Shown here in pieces: positions 18,035-61,261 of a stretch of 64,000 bases of DNA. The position numbers and the translations under genes were made by a program. A model generated the notes under the pieces. That model was not told the DNA's origin and did not search any database. It worked only from the letters and a program-made list of their open reading frames with translations. Positions within the stretch are counted from its first letter, which is position 1; each line of letters starts with the position of its first letter. Source of the DNA: Minisyncoccia bacterium (GTDB lineage: Bacteria; Patescibacteriota; Minisyncoccia; Phycocordibacterales; UBA918); contig JBKBPM010000001.1 of NCBI GenBank assembly GCA_046293175.1, positions 363,446 through 427,445 of the forward strand. Direction: 5' to 3'.

Positions 18035-18035
18035 A

Positions 18036-19061: not shown

Positions 19062-19172
19062 ACTCACAGTATACAGAATGACACCAGTCAAAAAGGGTTT
19101 TTTACACAAACAAAAATTCCCCGTGGTGGGGGGAATTTTTGTTGTATTACTCCAAGCTTGGACCAATATTCT

Positions 19173-20327: not shown

Positions 20328-20626
20328 GACTCTACATTGTATTAGCCAGGCACTACTGCGAGAGTTAGACAATGCAGTAACGTGACTCGCGACCGTCATC
20401 GTTCACAGTGTGGTCTCCACCCCACTTCTGTATAGACGAGCGACAGGCATACTAATGCTGTAACAGCGGCTGTTCTGTCCTAGCATACCATTGTGGTGGG
20501 AGCTAGCAGTATCATTAAAGAGATACCTCCAACATTAGTACTATTTCATTGTAGCCTGCTCCCCGAAACAAAAGAGAAACTTATACACAAAATTTATTTG
20601 GTTTGTCCCATTCAATTGAATATTGC

Positions 20627-23347: not shown

Positions 23348-23439
23348 GCGATACAGACTATTATCGAAAATATCTGACAAAAAAGCAATAACCACTGTTA
23401 GGATAACAGTGGTTATTGAAGTCAATTATGGTCTGTTAT

Positions 23440-42300: not shown

Positions 42301-45300
42301 GGTGGTGCACCAGTTACTCCTCCGCCGCCGCCACCACCGACGTGAATGGTGAGATTTTCACCAGGAATAGTCGTGAGTGTACCCCCAACAAATCCACCCC
42401 CACCACCAGTTGCTCCAGCATATTGTGTACCGCCACCACCAGCACCACCACCTGCACCCCAAGCCTTGACGGTGACATTAGTAACACCAGGTGGTACCGT
42501 GAAAGTACTGGTACCTGCAGTACTATAGACCATTTGTTGGGTGGTGGTACCAACTGCAATTTGAGCTGTTTTACCTGACTGTAAGACACCGTTTACCGCA
42601 ATCGCAACGGTACCAGTAGCCACCAAGGTTGACTGATCATATTCAAAAGCACTACCAGATACCGTAAGCCCTTCAGACCATTCAACTGACCAATCTTGTA
42701 TTGATGGACAATTTCCACTATCACAAAGGAGTTCCGCATCAAGCTTGAGCACTGCATAGATGTTTTTATCAAGGTTTGAAAGATCAATTGGTGAGTTAGT
42801 GAATCCTGCCGCATTACCAGGCAACGCTGAATCAGGAATCAACACAAAGTTACCTGGGGTTGTTTCATAGTAAACCCGATACAACACATCACTCAGGCCT
42901 GGTGTCGTATCAGTAAAGCGTACTCGCTCCCAACGTGGACTGACCCCGTCTTCAAAATTAATAGCAGTTGAGCGTATTGCACCCGAGGTAAAGCTTGGGT
43001 AGATTTGAGCAGCAATTGTTAGGGATCCATCAAAAGGCAACGTCGTAATTGATGGACTTGTACTGAAGTTCTCCCGCGCGGTCCATGTCACCCCATCCCA
43101 GCGACTTGTGTCATAGCGATCAGGGTTTGAACCATCATCAAACGCGAGCATGTGAATGTTACTATCACCACCACGTACGGTCTGGATACGCCAACTATTA
43201 TTGACTGTATCAAGACTAAACTCTCCAGAAGAAGTACCAGTAAGTACCGAATACGTTTGATAGCGGGCTGCTACTGTATCTGAATACGCGACAATCACTT
43301 CGCCTTCAGCTGTGCCAGGAGTAGTTTGAAATTCACAATCAACAGGCAAACCACGGTTATCATTACCGGTGGTGGTCATTTCAGTGAAAGTACCCCAACC
43401 ACTACCTGTCCAACGGAGTACACCAATGTCAGTATCAGCGTCCATGTAACAGAGAATCATTCGGTCACTGCCCTCGTCACGTTTAAGACTTCCCCAGGTC
43501 ATGACGTTGCCGAGCGCTACTGTGCTGGTGGCTGACCAAGTTGAACCATTCCACGTCTTCCATGGCATATTGACAGTACCATTTGGAAGCGCCAAAACCG
43601 CTTGATCTCCTGATTCTTCATATTCTATTACAATTGCTTCGTTAGAGTTAGCACTAACATCACCAAAACGATTCGAATTGCCCCAACTACTACCATTCCA
43701 CACGAGCGCCTCGTAATCAGGTGTAGATGCATTATTGTGTCGGAAGACTACAATCATTTCGTTTGAAGTAGGGTCACTGGCCAGCTTTACCCACTCACAG
43801 TCAGCGGCTTTAACTAAATCAATACTCGAAGTAGCTGACCAGCTTGTTCCATTCCAGATAGCGTAAACAGCATCATTGCCGGTACATGCTACGGCCATCA
43901 ATCGACCAGAGACAGTCTCGTACCCAATATCAAAACGACGTTTTGTTGATTCAGTGGCATTGTCAACAATTTCAAATATATTACCCCACGACTCAGTGAG
44001 AGCGTCATAGATTTGGATATTGATGTCAAGGTCAGTACCAAGAGTACCAAGGGCATATTCAGGTCGAGTTGTCGCAGCTTTGAGTTGTGTCCAGCGGATC
44101 TGGGCACCAACGGTCTCAGCGGACTGAGCGGAACTCCAAGTAGAGCCATTCCAGGTGCGGAACTGCGGTGCCTGTGCGGTACCAATACCATAAGCAGTCA
44201 TTGCGCCACTAATAATTGATGTTACTTGCGCACCGCCAGCCACAGTTTCAATATCAACATTGTCGTTAGTGGCAAACTGATCACCGGTCGTTTGATACCA
44301 GACTGATACATTAGTGGCTGTGTCAACCGTAAAGCTAAACGGTGTTGCGTAATTTGACCAACTATTGTTGCCACCGGGGTCACGCGCCCGTGCACGCCAC
44401 CAGTAGGTCACTCCATTTGTGAGTGGCGTCTGAGTTTGATAACGAACCGTGTTACCTGACGTGTATGGATTAGTATCAGCTGGGGTGGTGACATTTGTGA
44501 AACCAGCATCCACGCCAGAGAGGAAGGTAGATGGACTAGCAAAGTCTGCAGTACTCGAAATTTGCACTTCGTACTGCAAATCGTCGTTTTGTGGATCGGT
44601 TGTGGTAAAGGTGAAGGCTGGTGTCACAGTGGCCGTCTTTGCATTGTCAAAGAGTGAGATAAGCGTTGGTGGCTCAATCTTTTGACTCCAGGTCACCGTC
44701 ATATCTAAAAGCCGTGGCAAGGTAGAGTTACCAGAGAAGACCGAGGTAATACGAAGCACGTTATATGTCCTGGTATCAAGGTTTGCAATTGATATTGGTG
44801 ACGAAGTAAAGCCGCTACTGTTACCAGGCAAGTCAGTATCAGGCACCAGTTCAAATGTATTGGCAGAAACTTCATACTCAACGTAGTGTCGAATGGTACC
44901 AGAGGTGACATTTTGGTTGAAGTTTATACTACCCCACGCATTACCAATTTCTCGGTTATCATAATCAATTTCGGTAGTCGTTGTAGTCGCAGCAGTAAAG
45001 CCTGTGTTAATACCAGTATCATTGGTGGTGGTACTCGTGATCGCATCATTAAGGCTGTTGGTATTAAATTGATCACCGGTTGTTTGGTACCAGGTTGTGA
45101 TGACTGTGGCACTATTAATTGTAAAGCTTTTAGCTTCAGACCAATTACCGTAGGTATTTGAACCAAAATCATCTTTGGCACGTACTCGCCACCAGTAGGT
45201 TACTCCATCAGTCAAACCAGTGTTTGGAATAAATTGAATTGTCTGGCCAGACGAATACTGACTACGTTCTGAAGGTGAAGCTAAGTTGGTGAATTGTGAA

Positions 45301-48300
45301 AAATTAGCATTTGATTCCCGAATAAGGGTTGGTGAAGAAAAGTCAGCATCGTCATCAATCACCACTTCGTATGATACGAGGTCGCCCAGTTCATCTGTAG
45401 CGGCAAATTCAAAAGTTGGTGACGTTGAAGCCATCTGTTCGTTGTCAAATGGTGCAATCAGTGTCGGTTCAAGTGGTGCCGCGTTGGTAATCAACCGTGG
45501 GTAGTTGTCATAGCTATTCAACACAGAACCATCAGCATACACGACACGGAAACAGTAACTCGTATTAGCAGCTGCATTGTTGTTTTGAAGTACAAAGTCC
45601 CATTCAGCATTTTGACCTACCAATAATGCATTACGATTGAGATTGGTAGGGTTGTACTCTTCATACGTCTCAGGGAACGTACTACTAGCCAGCAAAGTGC
45701 TTGGTAGCACTCGACCATCACTGATGATTTCTTCAGAGGCAACGGCATAAAAGCCCGTAGGGTTTGATTTGTTATTAAAGGTGGTTTGTATCCAGCCGTC
45801 ACTACGAACGATATTTGAAATAGATACTTCATCAATACCACCGGTAAAAAGTCGTCCACCTAATGGATCTTGTCCAATATCAAGAGCTGCATAGGTACCC
45901 GTCGAGTGGGTTACCGCATTAGTTCCACTTGCTACCCCCACCCCGGAGTGACGCCACATTACCGCTCGAGTCGGCTCAATGGTCAAGGTGGCCATAAATG
46001 GCGCACTAGAAGTTGGATAGGTCGGCCCCCCTGTCCAGTTGTACGTAGCAGCAGCATCACGCCAGTGGTAGCCGAGACGATTTGTATTCGATGGAATATT
46101 GATACCACTGGTTTCACCTGACGCGCGAGTCATTAAAAGACCATCAAAGGCGCCTTGGTTACCGGTTGAAGAAGCCCAGATTTGCCAGGTTGAGTTGAGG
46201 AAAGAACGATTAAAGCTTGAACCAAGATCGATATACTCATTGGTTCCATCAATTGCTTGGAAGCGACCAACAATACCGTTCTGACGATCGCCCACTTCCA
46301 TATTTTGTGATGTACCATTACTATTGCCGGTACTATCAATAAATTGTGGTGCTGTGGCAGTTGGACTTTGATCAAGGTGGTACACCGCCAAGAAGTTGTT
46401 ACTCCATACATTATTGCGACCATAGGTAGCTGAGACACTATAGCCACTGGCTGCACCATTGCCGTAGTACACATAAAAGTCAGTGTCGGTTGTTGTCGAA
46501 AGCGATGGGGCTCGGAAGTGGAGCTCACCAATATCACTACCCGTATCAAGCGAGACTAGTTCATATGGTACTTCAGTTACTCCGTCACTGGTGGTGATGC
46601 GGATATCGTCACCGTCACTTTGCACATTATCAAAGAATTGCGCAGGAAAATCATCGAGATTGAGGTAAACCGGGAAGTTTGTTACATCATTACCTGAAAC
46701 TAAAGAACTCTCAACTGTCACCTTAACCCGCCGTGGCCAAGAGGCACTGTACCAATCAGTACCAACGATTGAGTTCGCATATCCGCGCCAGGTTGCCGTT
46801 GTACTTCCAACCGCACCCACGTCTTGCCAACCGGTAGCAATATTACAGGAGACACCAGTTGCGTACTGTAACTTGAAGGCGGACGTACTCGTCGGCAACG
46901 TCACATTTGCCCCCTCAAGTGAGAGACGAAGACGGATCACATCGTTGAGACTGACCGCTTCTGCTGAAGTGAGTGCAGTATTTTCTGCCACATCGGTACC
47001 TCCTACCGGCCAGGCATCCGTCGGGGTAAAGACACTCGCGTTTGTATACCAGCGAAAATCATTTTGTACGAGTTTTGGCTTACGCACCCAAGCCACTGAC
47101 CAATCATCAAGACTCGCACTGGTGGCGCCAAACGTGGTCAAGGTGGCCTCAAGACAAATCTGACTGTATGTGGTGGTAGAAAGACCAGTCAAGTTAAGAG
47201 GCATAGCCGTACTGTCAAAACCTGCACTATTTCCTGCCAGTGCTCCGTCTGGTATATAGGTGTCACAAGTGGTCGTACTCGTGTATTTAAGCTTTACCGT
47301 TACGTCCGTTCCAAACGGCTCAGTTGAAGAGAACGTAAAATCACCCCAGGTTTGCTGGTTTGGCACCGCCGAAAAGACAATCGGCTGCGTCGTCACAGTA
47401 CTTTGAGTAAATTGGTAGCGCTTAGCAGCCATTTCAAACGTTTCAAATGGAGCACCGGCTATTGAAGATGGGTTTGGTACTATTGATTGTTTCGTTGACC
47501 AGCTGGTTCCGTTCCAGTACGTTGACTCTATTTCATCCCCCGCCACAGCATCATCGTGTGAGACTGAGACGATGGTGCCATCTCCAGCTCGTTCTGTCTG
47601 CACCCAAAATACACCAGTACCCGCTCCGACACCTGTAATGGGCTGAGGGGCTGACCATGATGATGTCGCATACACGCTATACCGTGCATTAGTTGTGTCC
47701 GAATAGGCGGCGAGCGTATACCCCGAGCGACCTGCTACCGTCTCATATTCACAATCAATTGGTCGCCCAGCCTGAGAGTTACCAGCCGTAGAAAAATCAT
47801 TATAGGTGCCGGTCCAGATACTACCATCCCACCGGATCGCTCCTGGACGAGCCGAATCATTGATGTAACACAACACCATGTTGTCTGAGTTTGGATCAGC
47901 CGAGAGTGTTCCCCATTCAAAGTCATTTTGCAGTGCCTGGGTGGCAGGAGCGGTCCAATCAAGACCCGTCCAAGTACGATAGATGAAACTATTTCCCGTA
48001 CCATTGGTGACTGCTACAATCGCTTGATCACCGGAAGTTTCATACTTCACCCCAATACCAGCTCTCGCTTCTTGACCAGCCTGTACCGAACCCATGACCC
48101 GACTATTACCAAAAGCCGAACCGTCCCACACGAGCATCTCGTAGTTGTTACCAACCGCCGCTCCACTATCGCGTACTACCAAAATCATTTCATCTGAGGT
48201 TGGATCAGACGCAATCTCAACATGGTTACAGACGTTGACGAGGCTGGTAGTAATACTACTTGTAGCTGACCAGGTAGAACCATTCCAAATACGATAGACC

Positions 48301-51300
48301 GGATCTTTAGTGTTACTACAAGACACCACCATGGCGTCACCCGAGACACTTTCATACCCAACGGCAATACCACGGCGGCCGACATTTGAGACAGTGTTCG
48401 TGATGAGTGTTTGATTACCCCATGAACTACTCGTTGCATTATAGACCTGCGCATAGGTGGCGTTTGATTGGTCCATGGTCACAAGAATATACTCATCTCG
48501 CTTCACTCCAGCAGCAGTGCGCACCCAGTTTATGGTACCCCCTACTGGAATTGCCGATTGCTTAATACCCCAACTTGTACCACCCCAAAGACGGTAACGT
48601 GGCGTATTGTTGGTGCCATCACCATAGGCAATGAGCATCTCGGTGTTGGTAGTCGAATTAACGACGACATTATCATTATTAGAAACACCACCAAATAAGG
48701 TGTTGGTATTAAACTGACCGCTTGTGGTCTGGTACCAATTCGGCACGGTATCCGCCGCATTTACTGTAAAGCTTTGGGTTGTCGAGTAGTCACCAAAACC
48801 ACCAGAACCGGTTACATCCCTGGCTCGCACACGCCAATAGTAGGTCGTCAGGTCGGTGAGTGTCTCACTGGGTTGTAACTGGTAGCGGATTTTTTGCCCT
48901 TCTGTAAATGGAGAAGTATCGCCACCCGAAACAGTGTTGTAAAAGCCAGCATCACTGCTTGAGACCCGTACGGTAGCAGTAGCAAAGGTTGATGAAGTTG
49001 AAATCGAAAATTCATACTCAATATCAGAGGTCCCATCTGGATCACTCGCAGTAAACTCAAAATATGGAGTAGTTGAAGCCAGGCGAGCATTATCAAACGG
49101 CACGCCATGCAATGTTGGTGCAGCCGGACGGAAATCAAGCGCAGCTTTTTTCCACAACATGAGTGTTCCTGGTGTCGTTGAACTTACCTGACCAGCAGTG
49201 GCCTCCTGCTGACTTTGGATAGAAATAATTTGTCCAGCCGTGACACCTTCAAGGAGAAACACGAGATTGCCAGAAGCTTCAGCGTGTCCATTTTGATTAC
49301 GAATAAAATTTGACTTTGTCTGGGCACCAGTGGTGGTTACACCATTAACAGTGACCGTAATGCGATTGTTGGTACGCGCAGTGGCACCAGTAAAAGCACC
49401 ATTGTATGTCAGGAGGTAATCACCACTGGCGTTGACAGTTATCTGGTGACTATTAACTGCGGTTGAATGTGTATAGGCGTTACTATCGTACGCCAGTTGC
49501 GTATTAAACCGTGACGAAGAAGCATTACTATTGTTAAAGTTCATGCCAGTTGTACCATTGAGGTAGTTGCCGGTGAGGGCAATCACACCGGTTGATGGTA
49601 ACTTTTGTATATAGATTGATCCAGCAAACCCTGGTGTCACCACCACATTACCACCACCCGCTTCTTGTTGTGTCGTTACTGTCAATACACTGTTAGTGGA
49701 GCTGGCGACCACAATACCAGACCAGTGAATACTCGAGTCACCATCGCTTTCCGTCGCTGCCGTTTCCATATATCCCTGCATAAATTGCGCTCCGGGTACA
49801 GCCATGCCATTGATGAGCACTTGTCCTTTTACGTTTGTTTGGACCGTATGGTTAACGCCGGTGAGTGGAATATTGATATGAACCATGTAGGTACCGGTGG
49901 CTGACAGTGTAATGTTTTGTGGCGATACGGTATTTGAGTGCACATAACCACTATCCTGGCGAGTTTCTACCCAGTCAAGTGCGTTTGCTGTCGCTGTGTT
50001 AAGGCTCGTGGTCGCTGTCGAACGGGTTGTGGTCGCGGCAAATACTGTATTGGTATCGTTAATATATTCGAGATACATCGAAGCCAGGCCGGTTACGTTG
50101 ACGGTGTCTCCTGCGTCGATAGTGTTGAGGTTTTCGACAAAGACTTCAATGTAATCGTTTGCGCTAACATCAGTGAGCAAGAATGCGACGTTTGAAGATG
50201 ACTCAGATTGTGCTCCAGCATTTTCAATGTAGCCACTACGTCCAAGACCTTCTTGGACGGCAATTCCATTCTTTCGTACTTCTATACCAGAACGAGTACG
50301 ACTCACATTAGCGTCAGTTCGCTGTACTGGCAAGTTGACCGAAACAAAGTAATCACCATTCTGACGAAGGGTTACTCGCTGTGAGTTGGTTGAGGTCGAA
50401 TGAGAATAATAGTAGTTATCAATTGAACTGGTTGACCACTGCATTGGACTTGGAGCTTCGTTTAGGTTTGTACCTGCAACAGTCCGCGTCCCTTTGAACC
50501 AACCGATATTGTTAAGAGCGTCAGAAGCAATTTGCCACTGCCGCAACTCGTGGAAGGTATCCATCTGGAGCGGTCCCAAAAGATACATATATGGACTTAT
50601 ATCCGGTGCGTCAAAGGTGTATGAGAGTGTAATCTCATCACCCTCATTAAGCGTAATATCCGACCAGGTTATCACACTGTACTGTGGAAGAGCAGTAATA
50701 GTGGCTCCTTCTAGTCCTTCTATAATAAAACCACGCGGTACTCGTTCGGTGATATCACCTGTGTAGGTTCGGTTGGCTTTAATATTGAGATCAACCTTAT
50801 ATGGTGCTGGTGGATAGATACGAGTTGGCGCAGTACGAGTGATGTCAAACGGAATGTAATCACGCACTTCAAATGAATCAGTAATTTTATGAACAACTTC
50901 CCCATTCACATTCAAATGCTGCAACTGAATCGTGTACTCACCCCACTCACCAGTATCTGTAAAGGTGGCCAGGTAGTCTGGCATATCAGTCACATTGTTG
51001 GCATTACATGAGCCAGACTGTTCGACCGGCACTTCATAGATGGTTCCTTTTGGATCAATAATCTTCATTTGCAGATTTGCATCACAAATCGTGTCACCAC
51101 TATCAGTCAACGCAGCAAGATTGAGTTGCACTTCTTCGTTCGGGAAGTACATACTCTTTTTTGTGTTCACCGCCAAAAGACCCCAATAGAATTCAAAGGT
51201 ATCGATGAACTTTTCACCATTTTCGAGTACTTCTACGGTGACTTCATATTTGCCTGGTTCAAGTGTGTACGGGAGTTGCTGTACCTCCATAGACCAAGTC

Positions 51301-52811: not shown

Positions 52812-54365
52812 TTAGCGAAGAATAGTTTTTACGTCATTGATTTCCTTCTCTATCAAGGTCTCTGATACTTCGAGTGCTTGATTGAGACCCTCTACAGCTT
52901 CTTTTTCTTTCTTTGAAAGGCGTGGACGCTTCGTGATGAGATTTATCTGATCATAGATTTCATCGCGTAGCGCTGAGAAGATTTTTTCCATCTGGTCTTG
53001 AATCTCACGTGTCTCGCGACGGAGCTTATCTTCACGGAGTTTGTTCTGCTTGCGGTCATACCAAATGTAGATGAACTGCATGAGAATTGTGATGAGGAGC
53101 AACGCGGTGAAAATGTTTCGTCCAGTGAGGTAATCCCAGATGGTCGTTTCGATTTCTACTTCTGCTGGTTTGATCCACCCGGCAGTGATCTGTACAGCCA
53201 CGCGAGATTCTTTGGTGTTACCAGCCTTGTCGTGCGCTACTACTTTGACAGTATACGTACCATCTTCCAGTTCCTTAAGGAGATAGCCAATAGCTGCTTC
53301 ATCAGGACTAACTTTGATTGGTTCATTATCCGCAATCGTCATTTCGTAGTAATCGATACCAGAGGTGGTGTCGTTCGCTGCGAAATTAAGTTGTGGGAAG
53401 CCGGTCGGTGAGTTCGAGACCCGTACTTCAATAATGAAGTCTTCCGGTGGGATCGTATCAATCATGATCTTACGATTGAGGACCGCACCCCAACCGACCT
53501 GATTCTTATATTTGATACTGAGGTACTGAATACCTTCAATGACATTTTCTCGGTTCAAAGCAAATTCTTTAACCGGAGGATTTGAAATTGCTGACTTCGT
53601 GAGCTCTGGCTGATTCTCGGATGAGGTAGACAGCATCACGGCGAGTTCGTTCACATCAAACGGGATATCCCATTCAAAGAGACCATCGGTGGTTGCGTAC
53701 CAGGTTTCCGGATCAAGGAAGGTCTTTGATCCAACCTCAGGCGCCCGTGGTGGATCACCAAACACAATTGCCGCATTACTATCTTCGTTGTCATCATTAC
53801 GTGGAGGTGTTGGCGTATCGGTAGGAGTCGGTGTTAGTGTTGGAGTTGGTGGTGGGGTTGCTCCAGCCGCTACCGTAAACGATCCATTAGTACTCTTGGC
53901 ATAAACATCGGTTCCGCGACCATCTGCTGCAAGAACAGAGGCACTTGAGACCGTGAGCGCTCCGGTACCGGCAGCAACCGCCCGGAAGGTCACACTCACG
54001 AGGTTAGACTGGGCCGTAAACGGAGATGGACTACCACCACCAAAGGTAATGGTTCCGGCACTGTTTGAGTAAGTTGGCTCAGTCGTCCATAGCGAGAAAA
54101 CCGAACCGGTCTTACTGACGTTTACAACTGAGAGTACCGCCGGATCAAACTTGAGACTCGCCTCAACCGCGTTTACACTCTGACCACCAGGAGACACACG
54201 AACTGAGACGGTAAAAGTCTGGCCAGGAGTGTAGTTACCGGTACTTGGTGAAATAATCAAATCGGCAGCCTGTGCAACACTAGAGAAAAAAGCAAACAAC
54301 AGAACAGCTCCCGCCAAGGCCAATACTTTACTTATATGTGTACGTGTGGATGTAAATGAGAACAT
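52812..54365 (-). CDS. cohesin-domain membrane protein with Ig-like domains, C-terminal TM and conserved cytoplasmic helical tail (paralog of 16319..18034)
   Basis: 517 aa with a signal (VLALAGAVLLFAFFSSVAQA). Cohesin block (ADLIISPSTGNYTPGQTFTVSVRVSPGG...LWTTEPTYSNSAGTITFGGG), TP linker, Ig-like domain (VVAHDKAGNTKES), TM (IFTALLLITILMQFIYIWY) and a cytoplasmic tail (...RLSKKEKEAVEGLNQALEVSETLIEKEINDV). Confidence 0.7.
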   Translation of the reverse strand: MFSFTSTRTHISKVLALAGAVLLFAFFSSVAQAADLIISPSTGNYTPGQTFTVSVRVSPGGQSVNAVEASLKFDPAVLSVVNVSKTGSVFSLWTTEPTYSNSAGTITFGGGSPSPFTAQSNLVSVTFRAVAAGTGALTVSSASVLAADGRGTDVYAKSTNGSFTVAAGATPPPTPTLTPTPTDTPTPPRNDDNEDSNAAIVFGDPPRAPEVGSKTFLDPETWYATTDGLFEWDIPFDVNELAVMLSTSSENQPELTKSAISNPPVKEFALNRENVIEGIQYLSIKYKNQVGWGAVLNRKIMIDTIPPEDFIIEVRVSNSPTGFPQLNFAANDTTSGIDYYEMTIADNEPIKVSPDEAAIGYLLKELEDGTYTVKVVAHDKAGNTKESRVAVQITAGWIKPAEVEIETTIWDYLTGRNIFTALLLITILMQFIYIWYDRKQNKLREDKLRRETREIQDQMEKIFSALRDEIYDQINLITKRPRLSKKEKEAVEGLNQALEVSETLIEKEINDVKTILR

Positions 54366-55051: not shown

Positions 55052-56968
55052 TTAGCCGGTCCAGTTGAAGAGGAGAATCGAAAAGTCGGTAAGGTTCACC
55101 CTACCATCCTGACTAATATCCGCCGGTGGATTTGAATCGCCACCATCGGTGTTCCACCAGAAGAGGAGGATCGAGAAGTCGGTAAGGTTCACCTTCCCAT
55201 CTCGATTAAGGTCAGAGTTACTGCCTGTTGATTGGGACGGCCCACCCACACCATAGAGGGTGTACTGGGAGAAGTTTGAGGTGAGTGTCCCGGCCACGGC
55301 TTTCGCTCGAACTTTGTAGGTACCGTTGCTGAAGCCTCCGGTATCTATCGGAGTTGACCAGGCACCACTACCGTTTGCTTTCACGGTATACGACTTGCGA
55401 GAAGCGGTGTTTTTATCTTTTTCATTTTCAATGGTCACTTCGGCATCGGGGAATGTGTAGCCAGAAATGGTGAGAGCCTGCCCAGGATTAACGGGGTTTG
55501 GTGAGACCAAAATGGATGGCGGAATATTGATGTTACTCAAAGCCGATTCACGCGCACCAGCCACCGTAAAAGAAGTACTGAAAGTCGATGACTTCGTACC
55601 AGCAGCATCGGTAGCATAAATACCAAAAGTATATGCTCCGCGAGCAATCTTTTCGACTGTAGCAGTATAGGCACCGTTGCTATCAGTATTAGCGGTCACT
55701 GCCGACTTACCATCCACCAGTACAGTAATTTTTGCTCGCGGCGATGCATACCCGGTAATCACCACCTGACCATCACCACTCCGGTATGGAGCGGGAGATG
55801 ATTCAAATCCCCCGCCACCCCCGCCACCGCTACCGCTACTACCGCCGCCGCCACTACCGCCGCCACTACCGCCGCCTGAGGAACCTTGTGTACTTCCACC
55901 GCCAGTGGCAGCACCTCCTTGATTTCCACTACCAGAGCCACTACCAGATCCACCATTACCGGTACCAGTTCCCGAGCCACTACCATTACCGTTTTCGGTT
56001 GAACTACCGGTTGGCTGTGCACTCACGAAGAAACTAATGAGATAGTCATCAATGTTGAAGTTGCCTTCATCGTCTCGGCAGCGGACGTAGAAGTCTTGTT
56101 GGGAATTTGGGGTCACCGCTACGACATTTGTATGAAACAAGAGACCAGTATTAGAAAAAACTGCCGACATGGTGTTGTAGTCTGCACCGGGACTACGAGC
56201 AAATCGACAGGTAGCAAATTCATCGGTCTCGAGACTAATTTCTACGTTAAGCGTCGTTCCACCCACAGTTGATGTCGGAGCACCATTAAAGCGAAGTGGT
56301 GGCACCAGCTCGGTGGTGTCGACCGGGCCAATTCCCACCTGTTCAACCAGCGCAATCAAAAACCCAGCATTGGCGATTTCAGTTGCGGTGTTATCGTAAA
56401 TACGCATATTAACCTCTTTGGTACCTATATCTGGACCATTGATGATACCCGGTACATCAGCCGGTACAGTCGTAGTTCCGGTTGAGGTACTAAAGATAAA
56501 TCCTCCTTTATTGGCTAAAAAAGTATGGTTACCGATTTTGAGTTCCAGAAGACTACCTGCGGCAATACCAGTACTTTGATTTAACGTATAGCGGATCATG
56601 CCCGGTGCCCCAGGGATAATATCAACCTTGTCATCTGTGGCAGATAAAGACGCTCCAACATCCCGCCGCACCCCATTGACCCGTAGCTCAACATTACGGA
56701 GTTCTGAGAACTGCGCACTACTGACGACCGTAAAGTCATCTGGTGGCACCACTTCAATGTAGCCTTCAGGAGGGATGCTCGTCGTATCAACCAGACGAAA
56801 TGAAAGAGTGTGATTGGAAGCGAGGTTTGGGGCTGACCGAGAAAGGGTATCTTTATATTCTTTGACGTTGCGAGCAAAAGAAAAATGTGGAGAGGACAAC
56901 AAAAAGGCCATGGAGCAAAGTCCCAAAACGAAATACACGAACAGACGCAGCGGTCTCGTGATATACAT
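55052..56968 (-). CDS. secreted dockerin-domain protein with N-terminal SNHTLxF domain (shared with the WxL-like proteins), Gly/Ser linker and Ig-like domains
   Basis: 638 aa with a signal (LRLFVYFVLGLCSMAFLLSSPHFSFA). N-domain YKDTLSRSAPNLASNHTLSF..., compared with LVSDTLSDSAPSVPSNHTISF (19173..) and LVSNTLSDSDVSALSNHTIRF (59876..). A long G/S linker precedes a C-terminal duplicated dockerin (DLNRDGKVNLTDFSILLFWW...DISQDGRVNLTDFSILLFNW), about 70% nt identical to the dockerin of 21285..22391. Confidence 0.75.
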   Translation of the reverse strand: MYITRPLRLFVYFVLGLCSMAFLLSSPHFSFARNVKEYKDTLSRSAPNLASNHTLSFRLVDTTSIPPEGYIEVVPPDDFTVVSSAQFSELRNVELRVNGVRRDVGASLSATDDKVDIIPGAPGMIRYTLNQSTGIAAGSLLELKIGNHTFLANKGGFIFSTSTGTTTVPADVPGIINGPDIGTKEVNMRIYDNTATEIANAGFLIALVEQVGIGPVDTTELVPPLRFNGAPTSTVGGTTLNVEISLETDEFATCRFARSPGADYNTMSAVFSNTGLLFHTNVVAVTPNSQQDFYVRCRDDEGNFNIDDYLISFFVSAQPTGSSTENGNGSGSGTGTGNGGSGSGSGSGNQGGAATGGGSTQGSSGGGSGGGSGGGGSSGSGGGGGGGFESSPAPYRSGDGQVVITGYASPRAKITVLVDGKSAVTANTDSNGAYTATVEKIARGAYTFGIYATDAAGTKSSTFSTSFTVAGARESALSNINIPPSILVSPNPVNPGQALTISGYTFPDAEVTIENEKDKNTASRKSYTVKANGSGAWSTPIDTGGFSNGTYKVRAKAVAGTLTSNFSQYTLYGVGGPSQSTGSNSDLNRDGKVNLTDFSILLFWWNTDGGDSNPPADISQDGRVNLTDFSILLFNWTG

Positions 56969-57156: not shown

Positions 57157-58149
57157 CTAGAGAAAGAGGGCAACAATGAGGAAATAAACCCACAATGTCA
57201 TCACATCGCGAATCACCGTCGCCACTGGACCACTTGTGAGTGCAGGATCGTATTTGAGCTTCGTTGCCAAAAACGGTATCACGAGCGCCACCACCATCGC
57301 GAGCATAAGGGTTGCCAAGATAGCGGTAAACAAAAGCGGCACAAGTTCAGATGCGCCAAACCACCACGAGGTAATGCACCCAACGACCACACCAAGAATT
57401 GTGGCCAAAGTACCGGAGACAATCACTTCACGAAAGAAGTACCGGCGGAATCGCGCAAAGGTACCAAGCTCGGGATCAAGCGCAATCGCGCGTACAAAGA
57501 TGATTTCGGTTTGTGAACCCACCGCATCAGCCAAGTAGACCACTAGTGGGATAAAGGCCACAATGAGAACATGAACGGCCAGCGCCTCTTCAAAACGCTG
57601 CACGATAGAGGCCGCGAGTAGTCCACCAAGCAACCCTAAAATGAGCCAGGGTAGCCGTTTGCGGATATGGAGGAGAGGCGTACCAGATAACAGTGAATTT
57701 TGTGGGTCTTCAAAGTTCGTGGTACCGGCGTGCGCAAGCGCATCAGCGATGCGGCCGTAGTGAAGAATATCGCGTATCTTATCTGGGGTCACCACCCCAA
57801 GTAACCGACCAGTACCCTGATCAACAACCGGAACTGCCTTGAGGTTGTGATTAATGGCAGTCAGGGCCACCTGTTCCGCTCTCATGGTGGCCGGGACTGA
57901 CACCAAAGTCGCTTTGGCAGCAGCAGCCGCAATAGTATGATGTGAATGCGTAAAGACTTCTTTGACTGAGACCACTCCGGTGAGCTGGCGACTACTATTA
58001 ACAAGATAGACATACGCCACACTAGAGTATGAGGAAGCGTGTCGAGACAGGAGATTGACGATTTCACCGATAGTGGCTTTGGGTGAAATTACCGGGACAT
58101 TTTCGACCATGCAATCGATGGCGGTTAAATTTTTGAAACGATCAGACAT
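57157..58149 (-). CDS. mgtE: magnesium transporter MgtE (CBS pair + MgtE membrane domain; no N-terminal MgtE_N domain)
   Basis: 330 aa. Two CBS-like motifs (VISPKATIGEIVNLL..., LKAVPVVDQGTGRLLGVVTPDKIRDIL) are followed by a five-TM MgtE-type domain (RLPWLILGLLGGLLAASIV...DPALTSGPVATVIRDVMTLWVYFLIVALFL). Confidence 0.85.
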   Translation of the reverse strand: MSDRFKNLTAIDCMVENVPVISPKATIGEIVNLLSRHASSYSSVAYVYLVNSSRQLTGVVSVKEVFTHSHHTIAAAAAKATLVSVPATMRAEQVALTAINHNLKAVPVVDQGTGRLLGVVTPDKIRDILHYGRIADALAHAGTTNFEDPQNSLLSGTPLLHIRKRLPWLILGLLGGLLAASIVQRFEEALAVHVLIVAFIPLVVYLADAVGSQTEIIFVRAIALDPELGTFARFRRYFFREVIVSGTLATILGVVVGCITSWWFGASELVPLLFTAILATLMLAMVVALVIPFLATKLKYDPALTSGPVATVIRDVMTLWVYFLIVALFL

Positions 58150-58219: not shown

Positions 58220-58642
58220 TTAGACGGTAACGTTTTGCTGCGTCAATCGTAACCGCTCTCGACTCCGAGCGTAGTCAAGTGCGTAATTGAGAATAATGAG
58301 CACAAGGAGAATAAAGAGAATGGTAGCGAGTACAAAGGTTCCAGAATCAAGTCCGGCAATACTGCCACCTTTATTGATACCAACTTCAATTTCTCGCTCT
58401 GAAAGTGCGAGCTCTCGCTCATCAAGTTCACGCTCACGAGCAGTTAGGGCTGCTGTCATTTGATTAAGTTCAGTTGGTGCAACACCAACAGATACCCCAA
58501 CTGCATTGGCGAGATAAAGCTCGGTACGATCAGCGAGTCTGGCTGTGACTGGACTGAAGAGTCCACTCTCAAAGACGAGCATCACCGCTACTACCGCACT
58601 CGCGATACGTAAGAGACTATGATATGAAGAATTTCCTAACAT
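58220..58642 (-). CDS. hypothetical two-TM membrane protein with coiled-coil loop
   Basis: 140 aa. TM1 (SAVVAVMLVFESGLF), a charged helical segment (ARERELDERELALSEREIEV) and TM2 (FVLATILFILLVLIILNYAL). Confidence 0.5.
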   Translation of the reverse strand: MLGNSSYHSLLRIASAVVAVMLVFESGLFSPVTARLADRTELYLANAVGVSVGVAPTELNQMTAALTARERELDERELALSEREIEVGINKGGSIAGLDSGTFVLATILFILLVLIILNYALDYARSRERLRLTQQNVTV

Positions 58643-58656
58643 ATATAAAGTATACC

Positions 58657-59715
58657 CTACGCAAACAAGATGAGGAGCACAATAAAGAACAGCGCACTGA
58701 CTGACAACATCACAAGGAAGATGAGGAGGATCGGATTACCCGTATTGCGACGCTCCACAATCCTTCGAGTACCACCGCCAGTGTAGTACGCGAGCTTGCG
58801 ACGAATATACAGCTTCACACCAAAGTATACGGTAAGGAGCAGTATCGCCAAGATACCAAGGGCTGGAAGTACAATCTTAACCGGTAAGACCCAGAAGGTT
58901 ACGGAACTCGACATTGTCTGCTTGGCTCCCTCTTCGCCGTAAATAGGACTCACGACCGCCTCGTAGCGACCAAAACCATATCCCTCACCTTTCCAATCAA
59001 ACGTAAATTCTCTCGTATCAGCCGGAAACACTGCTGCAGCAGATTCGTTAAAGATAAGATTGTCATCAACCTTTTGTCCAAACATGTTCGTAATCTCTAC
59101 TGGTCCGACCGGACGAACAAGTGTATTACCGTCGTTTTCAATCCGAAGATTAAAGGTTACATTTGGAGAACCATAGATATAGTTATCGGTCGAAAATTGA
59201 CGAATCTTAGCTGACTCAACACACTCACCGGCCACCCGCAAACTGATGATGTTTGCGACCTCGTAACCAATAGCGGCACCACTCTCACTGAGCTTGGGTG
59301 GTTCCATTGAGACGAAGATCCCAGCAAAGTGATTACATGGCGGTGCATCAGGCGGAACAGATACAACAAATGAGATTGGGGCTTCTCCTCCGGCTGGGAC
59401 TGTCACAGTATCAGCAGTCAAAGTAATCCAACTACTCATATCAAGTGGAGTCGGCTCAACGTTGTCTGGAGCATAAACAGGCACGCTGCCATCCCGCACA
59501 CCAATGATATCGCGACGACCAAGGTAGTAGGTCTGTTCAACGTCACTCTCATTCTTAATTGATGCCACGAAGGTTTTTGTTGCACCAGGATCAATTTTTT
59601 CTTCAATGGTGGCAGGCTTCAACGTAACACCAGCACTTCCCTGCGCACCCACCAACGTAGGAGCGAAACCAACAAACAACACAGCCAACAAAAGTGATAA
59701 GAATGTCCTTCGCAT
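58657..59715 (-). CDS. CscA-like (DUF916/DUF3324-like) cell-surface protein with C-terminal TM anchor(s)
   Basis: ORF 58657..59760 (-). ATG verified at 59715 (MRRTFLSLLLAVLFVGFAPTLVGAQ). About 270-aa ectodomain, a TM (IVLPALGILAILLLTVYFGV), a basic loop and a second C-terminal hydrophobic segment. It lies immediately downstream of the WxL-like gene 59876..60997. Confidence 0.6.
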   Translation of the reverse strand: MRRTFLSLLLAVLFVGFAPTLVGAQGSAGVTLKPATIEEKIDPGATKTFVASIKNESDVEQTYYLGRRDIIGVRDGSVPVYAPDNVEPTPLDMSSWITLTADTVTVPAGGEAPISFVVSVPPDAPPCNHFAGIFVSMEPPKLSESGAAIGYEVANIISLRVAGECVESAKIRQFSTDNYIYGSPNVTFNLRIENDGNTLVRPVGPVEITNMFGQKVDDNLIFNESAAAVFPADTREFTFDWKGEGYGFGRYEAVVSPIYGEEGAKQTMSSSVTFWVLPVKIVLPALGILAILLLTVYFGVKLYIRRKLAYYTGGGTRRIVERRNTGNPILLIFLVMLSVSALFFIVLLILFA

Positions 59716-59875
59716 GCAAAAACTCATAGTGATAATGTTATTTATTATAGCATCGCTCAACTGTCATGAGCAGAACCTATAAACAGCGGGAGGGATTTGT
59801 TACACAACAAAAAACTCCCAATGGGAGTTTTTTGTTTCTACTTTTTTAATGCTTGCGACAAATTATAGACTTTCT

Positions 59876-60997
59876 TTAGAAGGTAGGAGTTGCGATGTAC
59901 GTTAGGACTGTACTGTAGTCATCTCCCGCTTCCTGGAGTGGTGAAATTTGGATTTGATATCCAATATCAGTTTCTCCAATGTCAGCGGTTGCACCATCAG
60001 ATGGACCATTGTGTGCAAAAATCTGTCGTGGCGTTGTACTCGCTGCGACAAAGAGTACAGATCCGAACTCATCACCGTTAAGGTCAGAATCTTCTGAAGT
60101 GAGACCCCAGTGACCCCAGGTATTTTCATCAGTAATGTTGTTCGTCGGAGATGACCATACGGTTGGCGTATTTGTGTACGTACCGTTGGCAAAACCATCG
60201 ATGTCAGCACCTGTAGATGAGAGAAGATTTTGGTCTTGCTCTACAGTTACTACGAAGCCGTTACGGGCGTTCGTGGTTACGTTCAATCGTTGTGCCAGCG
60301 TCTTTAGCTCACCGGCTGTCAAGACACCGAATGGAATAGCAGTGGCGGTAGTAGAACCAGTAGTACTGGTACCATTAACTGCTGTACTGGTAGCAAGACC
60401 AGTTACCGTAAAGGTAAATGAGGTATTGACGATAGCAGTGACATCAACGTTATCAAGAATAGCTACTCGTGTGCGACCGGTATCGGCCCCCGCTGTCACA
60501 AGAAATTCGTAAGAACCCGCAGTTGGATTCGTGACACGATTTGTACCACCAGAAGCATTTGTACCGACACGAATAATGATTGCATCAGTGTTAGTGGCAA
60601 TTGCCGTTCCTGTTCCTGCTGTGAACGTAATGTTCTGTCCTGCTACAGCAACACCCCAGGTGTTAAGCGCAGGGGCACCAGCCAAAGTCTGGTCAACGCC
60701 ATCGATTGACATATCAATGTCACCGAGTGCAACTGAACCAAGCGTGAAGCCAGCTGGAAACGCGACAACAATTGTCTGTCCAGTGGACACACCAGCTGAT
60801 GAGGTAGCAAGCGTGAAGCGAATCGTATGATTCGAGAGAGCTGATACGTCAGAGTCTGATAAGGTGTTGCTTACCAAAGTAAGGTTTGCAGCATCAGCTG
60901 TATTGTAGAAACCTACAGACACAACTAGTACAGCTGCAGCAACGAGCATCGCGACTACTCGGTGCAAAGCTTCAACACTCGTTGAAATTTTTTGCAT
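59876..60997 (-). CDS. WxL-like cell-surface protein (paralog of 19173..20327)
   Basis: 373 aa with a signal (VAMLVAAAVLVVSVGFYNTADA). The N-domain contains SNHTIRF. The C-terminal domain (SFTFTVTGLATSTAVNG...IPFGVLTAGE...TWGHWGLTSEDSDL...TVLTYIATPTF) has the canonical W-G-L (WxL) spelling. Confidence 0.65.
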   Translation of the reverse strand: MQKISTSVEALHRVVAMLVAAAVLVVSVGFYNTADAANLTLVSNTLSDSDVSALSNHTIRFTLATSSAGVSTGQTIVVAFPAGFTLGSVALGDIDMSIDGVDQTLAGAPALNTWGVAVAGQNITFTAGTGTAIATNTDAIIIRVGTNASGGTNRVTNPTAGSYEFLVTAGADTGRTRVAILDNVDVTAIVNTSFTFTVTGLATSTAVNGTSTTGSTTATAIPFGVLTAGELKTLAQRLNVTTNARNGFVVTVEQDQNLLSSTGADIDGFANGTYTNTPTVWSSPTNNITDENTWGHWGLTSEDSDLNGDEFGSVLFVAASTTPRQIFAHNGPSDGATADIGETDIGYQIQISPLQEAGDDYSTVLTYIATPTF

Positions 60998-61261
60998 GAA
61001 TATTATTTTTTAAATAACTAATATTGTAGTCAGAGGCGACTCTCCGGTACAAGCTCGGTTGAAGGTGGAGATAAATGAGATAGTTATGTGAAAAAAATTC
61101 AGCCACTATTCATTTAATGCTTCAACCGATCTAAGTACATTATAAAGACTTTTAGAAATACTGTCTCAAATCGCGTGTTGATAAGTAAAGTATCGAACAT
61201 TTTGTGCTTATAGAAAGTTGTTATCACACAATCGTTTTCTTCAATTCAGTATGTCTTCTAC

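Follow-up and report, generated by a model that had tools for sequence, protein, structure and literature searches.

Does the gene pair at positions 58,657 to 60,997 of this window (the entire 64,000-nucleotide stretch that was analyzed) encode a WxL-type cell-surface complex of the kind described for Firmicutes, or a surface structure of another type? A sequence-only reading had assigned the upstream gene, here called A, to the WxL proteins and the downstream gene, B, to the DUF916/DUF3324 proteins, and had described four such pairs in a CPR-like genome. We favor a different answer, to which we assign a probability of roughly two in three: in this Paceibacteria (Parcubacteria) genome, the A-B pair would form the central part of a donor-strand pilus module of the Pam type. 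The relevant features are compiled in Table 1.

Table 1. Positions of the genes, domains, and signals discussed in the text (window numbering)
Feature	Position	Strand	Description
Promoter-like site, GAGACA-17-TATAAT	61139..61167	minus	Upstream of A; 10/12 match, consensus match only
Gene A, Pam-type pilin-like protein	59876..60997	minus	373 aa ORF, stop codon included
Gene A signal peptide, residues 1-36			Cleavage-type site between ADA and AN
Gene A N-terminal domain, residues 37-181	60455..60889	minus	Nine predicted beta-strands; variable portion
Gene A linker, residues 182-193	60419..60454	minus	DNVDVTAIVNTS; candidate donor strand
Gene A C-terminal domain, residues 194-373	59879..60418	minus	Extreme C-terminus ...LQEAGDDYxTxLTYIATPTF
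Terminator-like palindromic hairpin, flanking A and T runs	59806..59836	minus	Between genes A and B, coding strand
Gene B, two-Ig-domain anchored protein	58657..59715	minus	352 aa from ATG 59715; PamC/D-like chaperone candidate
Gene B loop, residues 138-157	59245..59304	minus	EPPKLSESGAAIGYEVANII; candidate donor strand for the C-terminal domain of the partner
Gene B membrane anchor	58660..58881	minus	Helix 279-304, basic loop 305-326 (RRKLAYYTGGGTRRIVERRNTG), helix 327-352
Third cassette gene, 140 aa	58220..58642	minus	N- and C-terminal hydrophobic helices with charged ERELDERELALSEREIE segment between
Pilin-like paralog of A	19173..20399	minus	408 aa, or 385 aa from ATG 20327; same N-domain, linker, and C-terminal domain
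2053-aa giant	6980..13141	minus	Last ~172 residues (about 6983..7498) are the A-type C-terminal domain
B-type paralog, 328 aa	5981..6967	minus	Directly after the giant; PF06030 E 0.08
B-type paralog, 564 aa	4375..6069	minus	Second TM segment, C-terminal LytR_C
Weak B-type relative, 342 aa	22397..23425	minus	After the 625-aa protein; membership uncertain

Results

Organization and conservation of the locus

The open reading frames were located on the minus strand at the positions given by the sequence-only reading, and A and its paralog both carry the TWGHWG[LI]T motif and end in TLTY[IV]ATP[TV]F, as it had noted. The longest B frame (58657..59760) begins 115 bp downstream of A at the TTG codon 59760; because TGCTATAAT, at about 59753..59745, falls within the TTG-started frame, a later start is favored, and positions 59715 and 59727 are likelier. 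A hairpin with a T-run was present in the A-B spacer of all 56 related loci (56/56), with differing stem sequences. From these terminator-like hairpins, A looks to be expressed separately from B, and a hairpin after A fits a highly expressed structural subunit accompanied by a lower-copy helper.

For the synteny comparison, 66 species-level Patescibacteria loci were fetched and 57 were testable. Gene A lay directly upstream of B in 53 of the 57 and 2-3.4 kb upstream in 3 more, confirming that the pairing is conserved in related genomes. The 140-aa two-TM gene directly follows B in 61 related loci, and its product gave no family match. A gene for a CBS-domain Mg transporter (MgtE) adjoins the cassette. 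No usher family was found among 30 proteins of the window scanned with Pfam (the 7450-aa ORF was left out), and no WxL protein was found in the window or the related loci, where the published definition of a WxLIP cluster requires at least two (PMC10599100). All named relatives were assigned to Parcubacteria, Paceibacteria, Kaiserbacteria, Nomurabacteria, or Patescibacteria, in agreement with the earlier impression of a CPR-like genome.

Relationship of B to DUF916/WxLIP proteins

The B protein starts with a signal/TM segment, continues with two domains predicted to be beta-sandwiches, and is anchored in the membrane at its C-terminus. Pfam PF06030 (DUF916, now WxLIP_PGBD) was matched by 56 of 59 B-family members (best E 6e-9), and the B orthologs carry precomputed PF06030 calls as well as one NCBI name, "DUF916 domain-containing protein". 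B itself scored 18.3 bits, under the cutoff of 27.3, and the three window proteins that matched the model, B included, were all below the cutoff (E 0.0024, 6.2e-5, and 0.08). The family profile matched the solved Enterococcus faecium EfmWxLIP1 (9i25_C, 9i1y) at E 1.3e-7. When the AF2 model of B was compared with the PDB using Foldseek, the best match was 9i25_C, "WxLIP bound to long WxL" (E 6.8e-14), with an alignment of 265 columns covering both domains, followed by the chaperones CfaA, CsuC, Caf1M, and PapD (E 5e-12 to 2e-8). PF11797 (DUF3324) was detected by sequence in none of the 59 family members, with true WxLIPs scoring E 5e-38, and the B family matched no NCBIfam model for Pam chaperones. 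These comparisons support the assignment of B as a divergent DUF916/WxLIP relative; the DUF916 label of the earlier reading holds, and its DUF3324 label found no sequence match. On the basis of the predicted structure, B looks like a strand-donating chaperone. The CscA architecture that had been ascribed to B was retained for the signal/TM segment, ectodomain, and anchor but not for the short basic tail, as the basic stretch lies between two helices. The second of these C-terminal helices is conserved throughout the family and adds to the single-helix pattern of WxLIP. We found no literature combining DUF916 or WxL with CPR.

The B loop listed in Table 1 has pLDDT values below 50 at residues 145-149 and aligns with EfmWxLIP1 residues 124-151. 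Its residues P139, P140, G146, A147, G150, Y151, V153, N155, and I156 are at least 90% conserved. By analogy with the WxLIP and Pam chaperone models (PMC10599100; 10.64898/2026.03.03.709456), this loop may act as the strand donor.

Domain structure and conservation of A

Relatives of A numbered 1929 at E<=0.001, all Patescibacteria wherever named, and the best 120 of these share 62-91% identity with A. The AF2 model (mean pLDDT 84) places nine strands within residues 39-181; residues 182-193 form an unstructured linker and residues 194-373 a beta domain. The N-domain is BslA-like. Across 117 diverse relatives, per-block conservation was 0.55-0.65 for the linker, 0.5-0.8 for the C-terminal domain, and 0.26-0.48 for the N-domain. 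The block 181-190 combines the lowest pLDDT in the mature protein (65) with conservation among the highest (0.65), and the family consensus at the linker is TRVAIIDxVxVTAxVxT. High conservation is also a feature of the donated linker of the Pam pilins, and the linker of A is a candidate for the donated strand.

The NCBIfam model NF058581 (CPR_Pam_pilin_C) aligned with residues 217-373 of A over model positions 2-148 of 148 (E 8e-4), and nearly the full model was also matched by the 408-aa paralog (E 2.5e-5) and the 2053-aa giant (E 0.0017, positions 3-148 of 148). The scores of these three proteins, 18-24 bits, are far under the curated cutoff of 55, so NCBI's rule would not call any of them a Pam pilin. 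The model was matched at E<=0.01 by 38 of 60 diverse A-family members (best E 6.9e-10), and true WxL proteins gave no match to it at E<=1. These matches support relatedness at the superfamily level rather than family membership under the curated rule.

A profile of the C-terminal domain retrieved 1390 clusters (50% identity) at E<=0.001. The domain match reached the last residue in 149 of the 150 relatives listed, with the one exception ending 14 residues early, and the proteins bearing the domain ranged from 137 to 1819 aa among the matches listed, with passengers ahead of it that include LVIVD, Laminin_G_3, and Flg_new. The domain behaves like a module at the extreme C-terminus. A match of one relative to TafC (haloarchaeal Tat-fimbriae) was provisionally attributed to its laminin-G passenger and not to the pilin domain. 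Proteins of 190-310 aa from the representative search were considered as PamT-like single-domain subunits, and this argument was dropped because most are N-terminally truncated gene calls.

A conserved Trp-x-Leu motif occurs twice in a WxL domain, the later copy close to the C-terminus, and the residues D and R stand at W1-8 and W1-6, respectively (PMC9772566). A possesses WGL at residues 297-299, its C-terminal block reads YIA instead of WxL, and the D/R pair is absent at these offsets. In the giant, the domain has another residue in place of the WGL tryptophan, which is not conserved within the domain family. Pfam WxL (PF13731) matched 0 of 113 A-family members (53 close at E<=0.1 and 60 diverse at E<=0.01) and no window protein at E<=1, versus E 1e-38 and 7e-8 for true WxL proteins used as positive controls. 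Alignment of the A domain with 18 and 28 true WxL sequences by hhalign gave probabilities of 0.4% and 0.9%, respectively (P 0.06); this weak alignment (at most 0.9%) pairs nGFxVTV with tGWxLxV and Y..LTYIATP with Y..LxWxLxDP, that is, with both WxL motif blocks. No WxL chain was among the fold matches listed for A, and the long WxL chain of 9i25 gave no match when queried by sequence with true small and large WxL proteins. By these searches A is not detectably a WxL protein, and the WxL label that had been given to A and its paralog is not supported, NF058581 being matched instead.

Paralogs and giant proteins in the window

A and the 408-aa paralog are 54% identical over 358 aa (E 1e-108); the paralog has the linker VVVTAAVDTS and matches the N-domain profile at E 1e-50. 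It is followed by a different TM-anchored protein (18036..19166), not of the B type, the N-terminal part of which is related to the window's two Pfam-cohesin proteins. The giant matches the paralog's C-terminal domain (BLAST E 3e-5) and is without the conserved linker motif, its match to the domain profile starting at profile position 19, past the linker. By analogy with FimH/PapG and PamT, the giant is a candidate tip or terminal subunit with a large passenger.

Searching the window with a B profile built without the window's own paralogs returned 4375..6069 (190 bits), 5981..6967 (84.5 bits), and 22397..23425 (24 bits, partial match), so further B-type proteins do follow the 2053-aa giant and, less certainly, the 625-aa protein as proposed. 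The protein encoded at 4375..6069 is 33% identical to B (E 1e-38) and matches PF06030 (E 6.2e-5) and LytR_C (E 1.4e-8); its frame overlaps 5981..6967, and its start is therefore probably near 6006. The 22397..23425 product (BLAST E 3e-4) has a C-terminal TM segment and basic tail and did not match PF06030. Three loci rather than the four recurring pairs were found, given the non-B protein that follows the paralog at 19173..20399. The 625-aa and 7450-aa proteins share a C-terminal domain (30% identity) that gave hhalign probabilities of 0.2-0.3% against the A domain or WxL, only self matches in jackhmmer searches of the fetched loci, and no NCBIfam match. The "W-G-[IL]" proteins, formerly treated as one class, thus carry two unrelated C-terminal domains (hhalign 0.2%), and the giant is without the WGL tryptophan.

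Discussion

A proposed donor-strand pilus and its alternatives

In the pilus reading, A would be a Sec-exported two-domain pilin whose nine-strand N-domain is variable and whose linker strand is conserved, as is the Ig-like domain that closes the protein at its C-terminus. B would be a chaperone tethered in the cytoplasmic membrane via its C-terminal helical hairpin, with two Ig-like domains predicted to resemble PapD/FimC-type chaperones and, most closely, the Enterococcus WxL-interacting protein. A strand of the conserved unstructured B loop would enter the C-terminal domain of A and would then give way to the linker strand supplied by the next A subunit, extending the filament from its base. 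The 408-aa paralog may be a second pilin, and the giant, with an acceptor domain but without the linker motif, would occupy a filament end and display its passenger, served by two B-type paralogs of its own.

The same pair could alternatively form a non-polymerizing WxL/WxLIP-like (Csc-like) surface complex in which B permanently holds A and the giants by an inserted strand, as proposed for Enterococcus, the A domain being a very remote WxL homologue or an analogue. The sequence relationship of B to DUF916/WxLIP_PGBD and its best structural match, a WxLIP bound to a long WxL, are consistent with such a complex, as are the gene order shared with the Firmicute clusters (a large protein and small partner upstream, the WxLIP downstream) and the weak hhalign alignment that lands exactly on the two WxL motif blocks. 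That alignment, however, reaches a probability of at most 0.9% (P 0.06), Pfam WxL matched 0 of 113 members compared to E 1e-38 for the positive control, the WGL tryptophan is not conserved in the domain family, and the A domain matches a Pam pilin model that true WxL proteins do not. In addition, a conserved linker strand in A serves no obvious need in a static anchor, and a terminator after A implies far more A than B, which is hard to square with a 1:1 anchor. We consider a static complex of this type unlikely. The Csc-like proposal of the earlier reading is retained in part, namely a secreted protein whose C-terminal beta domain would be held by an anchored two-Ig-domain partner, but a Pam pilus fits better than a Csc/WxL complex. 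We judge it highly improbable that A is instead an abundant monomeric or lattice-forming coat, S-layer-like or BslA-like, with B an unrelated Ig-domain neighbor having no specific interaction with A. The conservation of A, unusually high for surface proteins of the CPR (the best 120 relatives are 62-91% identical), and its own terminator would suit a coat, but it is the linker and C-terminal domain that are conserved and not the BslA-like N-domain, the C-terminal domain matches a pilin model, and the A-B adjacency in 53 of 57 loci along with the paralogous pairing in the window argues for a specific partnership.

Implications

Building on the pilus reading, we suggest more tentatively, at somewhat less than even odds, that the Firmicutes DUF916/WxLIP proteins and the CPR Pam-type anchored chaperones might be one family and that giants, each assisted by a chaperone paralog of its own, might be mounted on filament ends via a pilin domain that acts as acceptor only. 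If they are one family, the WxL complex and the Pam pilus would be two outcomes of one strand-complementation machinery in bacteria without an outer membrane, and the widespread Paceibacteria module would link them.

The Paceibacteria/Parcubacteria rank among the largest groups of the CPR, and annotation of their cell-surface biology is almost wholly lacking. Nearly all of the sampled relatives have the A-B module, and the pilin-like domain accounts for about 1400 clusters at 50% identity; every source name listed for the pilin-domain proteins is "hypothetical protein", and their NCBIfam scores are below the cutoff. Recognition of these proteins as Pam-type subunits and chaperones would give function to thousands of genes, would widen the range of the Pam pilus well past the two reported classes, and would provide a testable route for some giant CPR proteins to reach and remain on the cell surface. 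The DUF916 signature of the chaperone ties the module to the WxL/WxLIP clusters that lactic acid bacteria and enterococci carry and suggests that these clusters, whose role is still debated, work by the same strand-donation principle.

Comparison with known systems

The fold matches of B connect the module to the chaperone-usher pili (PapD/FimC, CfaA, CsuC, and Caf1M) without sequence similarity. In many chaperone-usher pilin subunits the last residue is aromatic and follows a strand with alternating hydrophobic residues, and the A domain appears to end likewise. In its combination of an acceptor-only domain with a large passenger, the giant is reminiscent of the tip adhesins FimH and PapG. 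In contrast to those systems, no usher was found here and no outer membrane is expected, the chaperone candidate is anchored in the membrane, the donor would be an internal linker rather than an N-terminal extension, and the pilin has an extra N-domain. A conventional outer membrane is not known from CPR bacteria.

The WxL/WxLIP (Csc) clusters of Lactobacillales and Bacillales are represented by PF13731, PF06030, and PF11797 and by the structures 9i25 and 9i1y (PMC10599100, PMC9772566, PMC1534035). Their likeness to the module includes PF06030 in B at the family level, the two-Ig-domain plus TM architecture, the best structural match, a partner gene located upstream, and a partner domain that is always found at the C-terminus, in proteins both small and large. 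A similar mechanism is also proposed, in which a strand of the anchored protein would complete the beta-sandwich of its partner. The systems differ in that the A domain is not detectably WxL by HMM, profile-profile, or the fold matches listed; B lacks a sequence match to DUF3324 and has two TM helices; an LPXTG protein is absent; the A linker is conserved, which is suggestive of polymerization; and the host belongs to the CPR rather than the Bacilli. The Firmicutes WxLIP, the closest solved relative of B, is thought to hold a non-polymerizing surface protein.

Pam pili were first described in 2026 for the CPR bacterium Candidatus Mycosynbacter amalyticus and use donor-strand exchange with no usher (bioRxiv 10.64898/2026.03.03.709456). 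According to the same preprint, in the pilins PamA and PamB a linker joins an N-domain of nine strands to the C-terminal domain; this linker, which is the donated part, ranks with the most conserved regions, the C-terminal domain is conserved as well, and the N-domain is variable; PamC and PamD are PapD/FimC-like with a C-terminal TM helix; the pam neighborhood contains the CBS-domain protein CorB; and the pilins are found mainly in Saccharimonadia and Microgenomatia, with Paceibacteria not mentioned (10.64898/2026.03.03.709456). The accessory subunits are PamT (a single-domain tip), PamE, and PamR (RbmA-like, with a TM helix). Our comparison uses NF058581 and the preprint descriptions; for the Pam filament, the models 25PZ and 25QA exist. 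NF058581 covers the whole C-terminal domain of A, yet scores far below the cutoff. A likewise appears to be a Sec-exported pilin of two domains, in which a linker connects the nine-strand N-domain to an Ig-like domain at the C-terminus; conservation is again highest in the linker and C-terminal domain, and the adjacent B is a PapD-like two-domain chaperone candidate anchored by C-terminal TM helices. The lack of an usher, the CPR host, and the nearby CBS-domain Mg transporter are also shared. Unlike the reported examples, the lineage is Paceibacteria, A contains zero cysteines whereas PamA and PamB have paired cysteines, and B has two C-terminal helices and a clear DUF916 signature that the preprint does not mention. 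Besides A and B, the cassette contains the conserved, unrelated 140-aa two-TM gene; no gene resembling PamT or PamR was identified in it and no PamE was recognized, and the same acceptor domain ends a 2053-aa protein with chaperone paralogs of its own. If the pilus reading holds, the Paceibacteria module would be a further form of the recently described Pam pilus.

Gene organization of the A/B module and its paralogs

Throughout the 64-kb window, all 31 ORFs judged to be genes are encoded by the minus strand; GC content is 44–50%, with no skew switch. The module studied here comprises gene A, encoding a pilin-like protein, and gene B, encoding a membrane-anchored protein with two Ig domains. 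A start of B at 59715 appears more plausible than that of the longest ORF because the TGCTATAAT box falls within the longer ORF. The 408-aa paralog is 54% identical to A (E 1e-108), and the motifs TWGHWG[LI]T and TLTY[IV]ATP[TV]F described in the sequence-only reading were found in both proteins. The giant of 2053 aa ends in ~170 residues that belong to the family of A's C-terminal domain (31% identity to the paralog). A B profile from which the window's own B paralogs had been excluded picked up three further B-type proteins. In the one encoded at 4375..6069, the first TM helix leads into another TM helix and then a LytR_C domain (E 1.4e-8); this ORF shares 89 nt with the B-type gene before it. 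Because the B profile recovers these three proteins, the earlier gene map, which held that a Csc-like WxL/DUF916 gene pair recurs four times, is correct at three loci, but at the fourth the paralog is unpaired; it is followed by another TM-anchored protein, the N-terminal part of which is related to the window's two Pfam-cohesin proteins.

Features of the window and the profile matches of the encoded proteins
Feature	Position	Strand	Remarks
Gene A	59876..60997	-	373 aa; NF058581 E 8e-4
Hairpin with T-run	59806..59836		perfect; between A and B
Gene B	58657..59760	-	longest ORF; 115 bp downstream of A
140-aa two-TM gene	58220..58642	-	directly after B in 61 related loci
MgtE-type transporter	57157..58149	-	CBS domains
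Paralog of A	19173..20399	-	408 aa; NF058581 E 2.5e-5
Giant	6980..13141	-	2053 aa; NF058581 E 1.7e-3
B-type protein	4375..6069	-	190 bits, B profile
B-type protein	5981..6967	-	84 bits, B profile
B-type protein	22397..23425	-	24 bits, only part of B profile covered
Cohesin-type protein	52812..54365	-	hydrophobic helix near C-terminus
Cohesin-type protein	16319..18133	-	hydrophobic helix near C-terminus
Cohesin-type protein	18036..19166	-	hydrophobic helix near C-terminus
Dockerin protein	55052..56968	-	638 aa; secreted; type I dockerin-like segment at end
Dockerin protein	21285..22391	-	secreted; type I dockerin-like segment at end
Dockerin protein	14876..15628	-	secreted; type I dockerin-like segment at end
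7450-aa ORF	30372..52724	-
625-aa protein	23440..25317	-

Relation of protein A to Pam pilins and WxL proteins

The NCBIfam model NF058581 ("CPR_Pam_pilin_C") covers the whole C-terminal domain of A, the paralog, and the giant, with all three matches being sub-threshold (18–24 bits versus a cutoff of 55). The model was matched by 38 of 60 diverse A family representatives at E ≤ 0.01 (best, 6.9e-10) and showed no match to true WxL proteins. It originates from a 2026 preprint in which filaments of the Saccharibacterium Ca. Mycosynbacter amalyticus were studied by cryo-EM and the pilins PamA and PamB of a CPR (Patescibacteria) donor-strand pilus were identified; the C-terminal domain of each pilin takes up the linker of its neighbour, the pam operon provides PapD/FimC-like chaperones (PamC and PamD) with a C-terminal TM helix, and there is no usher (bioRxiv 10.64898/2026.03.03.709456). 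DUF916, WxL, and Paceibacteria are all absent from its text. In the structural model of A, nine strands lie within residues 39–181, the linker (182–193) is unstructured with the lowest confidence in the mature protein, and a beta domain extends from there to the C-terminus, a predicted arrangement that reproduces the Pam pilin layout. Among 117 diverse relatives of A, conservation is concentrated in the linker and C-terminal domain and the N-domain varies, as is likewise the case for the Pam pilins (bioRxiv 10.64898/2026.03.03.709456). A profile of A's C-terminal domain matched 1390 clusters (50% identity) at E ≤ 0.001; the domain reaches the last residue of the protein in 149 of the 150 relatives listed from these clusters, and this residue is aromatic in the tails inspected. 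The relatives listed range from 137 to 1819 aa, with adhesin-type passengers (LVIVD, Laminin_G_3, and Flg_new) on larger members.

The proposal that A is itself a WxL protein was not upheld. Pfam WxL was matched by none of 53 close and 60 diverse relatives, and true WxL genes from Enterococcus plasmids, the positive control, scored E 1e-38 and 7e-8. Profile–profile comparison of A to true WxL sequences, first 18 and later 28 of them, yielded a probability of 0.4–0.9% (P about 0.06); the weak alignment coincides with the two WxL motif blocks, which is a lead and not evidence. The fold comparison between A and WxL covered the top-listed matches, which included no WxL chain, and used the whole protein rather than the C-terminal domain alone. 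We conclude that A is not detectably a WxL protein.

The Enterococcus gilvus plasmid pCR1A contains a genuine Firmicute WxLIP cluster, in which the proteins at 4736..6280 (DUF285/BspA-like) and 7168..7776 (a 202-aa hypothetical protein) have a common C-terminal domain ending in ...YQLYNT. Pfam WxL does not match this domain in either protein; therefore, Firmicute WxLIP partners may not all be recognisable WxL domains.

Relation of protein B to DUF916/WxLIP

The assignment of the anchored protein to the DUF916 lineage was supported. PF06030 (WxLIP_PGBD, formerly DUF916) was matched by 56 of 59 B family members (best E 6e-9), with the B-type proteins of the window matching below threshold only; among the B orthologs, several come with a precomputed PF06030 annotation and one bears the name "DUF916 domain-containing protein". 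The B family profile found the structurally solved Enterococcus faecium WxLIP (9i25_C and 9i1y) with an E value of 1.3e-7. In the AF2 model of B (mean pLDDT 84), a pair of beta-sandwich domains precedes two long helices. The top PDB match of this model is 9i25_C, "WxLIP from E. faecium locus A bound to long WxL" (265 aligned columns, E 6.8e-14), and the chaperone-usher chaperones CfaA, CsuC, Caf1M, and PapD rank next. No sequence match to DUF3324 was present in B, and genuine WxLIPs reach E 5e-38 using the same library. We conclude that B is a DUF916/WxLIP relative. Its loop EPPKLSESGAAIGYEVANII (residues 138–157) has the lowest model confidence yet is near-invariant across the family. The C-terminus does anchor the protein as had been suggested, but instead of a lone helix with a basic tail it forms a hairpin in which two conserved hydrophobic helices surround a basic loop. 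B also agrees with the description of PamC and PamD.

Conservation of the gene cassette

With each species represented by one genome, the scan recovered 66 loci, every one from Patescibacteria. The pairing of the two genes is conserved; for the 57 loci with enough upstream sequence, an A-type gene was immediately upstream of B in 53 and was 2–3.4 kb upstream in three others. In the 140-aa protein encoded after B, a charged, repeat-like ERELDERELALSEREIE segment lies between two hydrophobic helices; no family match was found for it, and the published pam operon description includes no counterpart (bioRxiv 10.64898/2026.03.03.709456). The MgtE-type Mg transporter gene is located immediately after this three-gene cassette, and a CBS-domain CorB Mg transporter is reported in the pam neighbourhood (bioRxiv 10.64898/2026.03.03.709456). 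A Nomurabacteria genome keeps a wider order of GH18, DinB, A, B, the small gene, a dockerin protein (~635 aa), HSP20, a ~510-aa protein, and a 7799-aa giant, with the MgtE-type transporter missing at the position after the cassette.

A terminator-like hairpin was present in 56 of 56 related A–B spacers, with the structure being kept and the stem sequence not (stems include CTCCC/GGGAG, CCTCC/GGAGG, CCGC/GCGG, and CCCC/GGGG). Because an A-run and a T-run usually flank the stem, the hairpin could work in both directions. Such a hairpin fits a far higher output of A than of B, the expected relation between a structural subunit and its helper.

Other surface proteins in the window

A cohesin–dockerin surface system runs parallel to the pilin-like module. 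The Pfam cohesin domain is present in two of the cohesin-type proteins, and that at 18036..19166 is tied to them by BLAST alone, over its N-terminal part; one cohesin-type protein directly follows the second pilin-like gene. The dockerin segment exceeds the Pfam cutoff only in the 638-aa protein, one of three. This protein begins with a homologue of the pilin N-domain (E 1.6e-9), including its SNHT[IL]xF first strand, and has no pilin C-terminal domain. In more than 30 related loci, the region about 0.3–5 kb downstream of B encodes a ~600–710-aa protein with a pilin-type N-domain.

The 7450-aa and 625-aa proteins have a common Cys-rich C-terminal domain (30% identity) of ~260–300 aa that ends in ...YWGI[AE]VP...; it had no family match and no detectable relation to A's domain or to WxL. 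A weak B-type relative follows the 625-aa gene, and an fn3-repeat protein lacking a TM anchor follows the 7450-aa gene. The syntenic 7799-aa giant of the Nomurabacteria genome has DUF2341 matches.

Proposed mechanism and comparison with known systems

The A/B module is best accounted for by a Pam-type filament mechanism, to which we assign a probability of roughly 0.7. The analysis shows only family links, architecture, conservation, and synteny; strand donation, polymerisation, and a tip role are inferred from Pam and WxLIP. A would be exported by Sec and captured when the conserved loop strand of membrane-anchored B is donated to its C-terminal domain. The main rival, a static WxL/WxLIP-like anchor, has the same first step and differs solely in whether A polymerises; we regard it as unlikely. 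According to the Pam-type mechanism, the next A subunit would supply its linker in exchange for the B strand and the filament would extend from its base, with the paralog at 19173 as a putative second pilin. The giant has the acceptor domain, and its domain-profile match starts past the linker motif; this protein may be situated at the filament end and display its passenger, aided by two B-type paralogs of its own, of which one has a fused LytR_C domain.

The core idea of the module is already in the preprint (bioRxiv 10.64898/2026.03.03.709456). Extending beyond the searchable literature are a very widespread Paceibacteria clade of the Pam-type system, the recognition of the candidate chaperone as a DUF916/WxLIP protein, the anchor of B with its two helices along with the conserved third gene, and giant proteins with a pilin acceptor domain at their end. 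The module's connection with both WxLIP and giant surface proteins is new and can be tested. By curated thresholds the module belongs to none of the Pam, WxLIP–WxL, and chaperone-usher systems; in its proposed action it works like the Pam pilus, and it resembles the WxLIP–WxL and chaperone-usher systems at the chaperone step.
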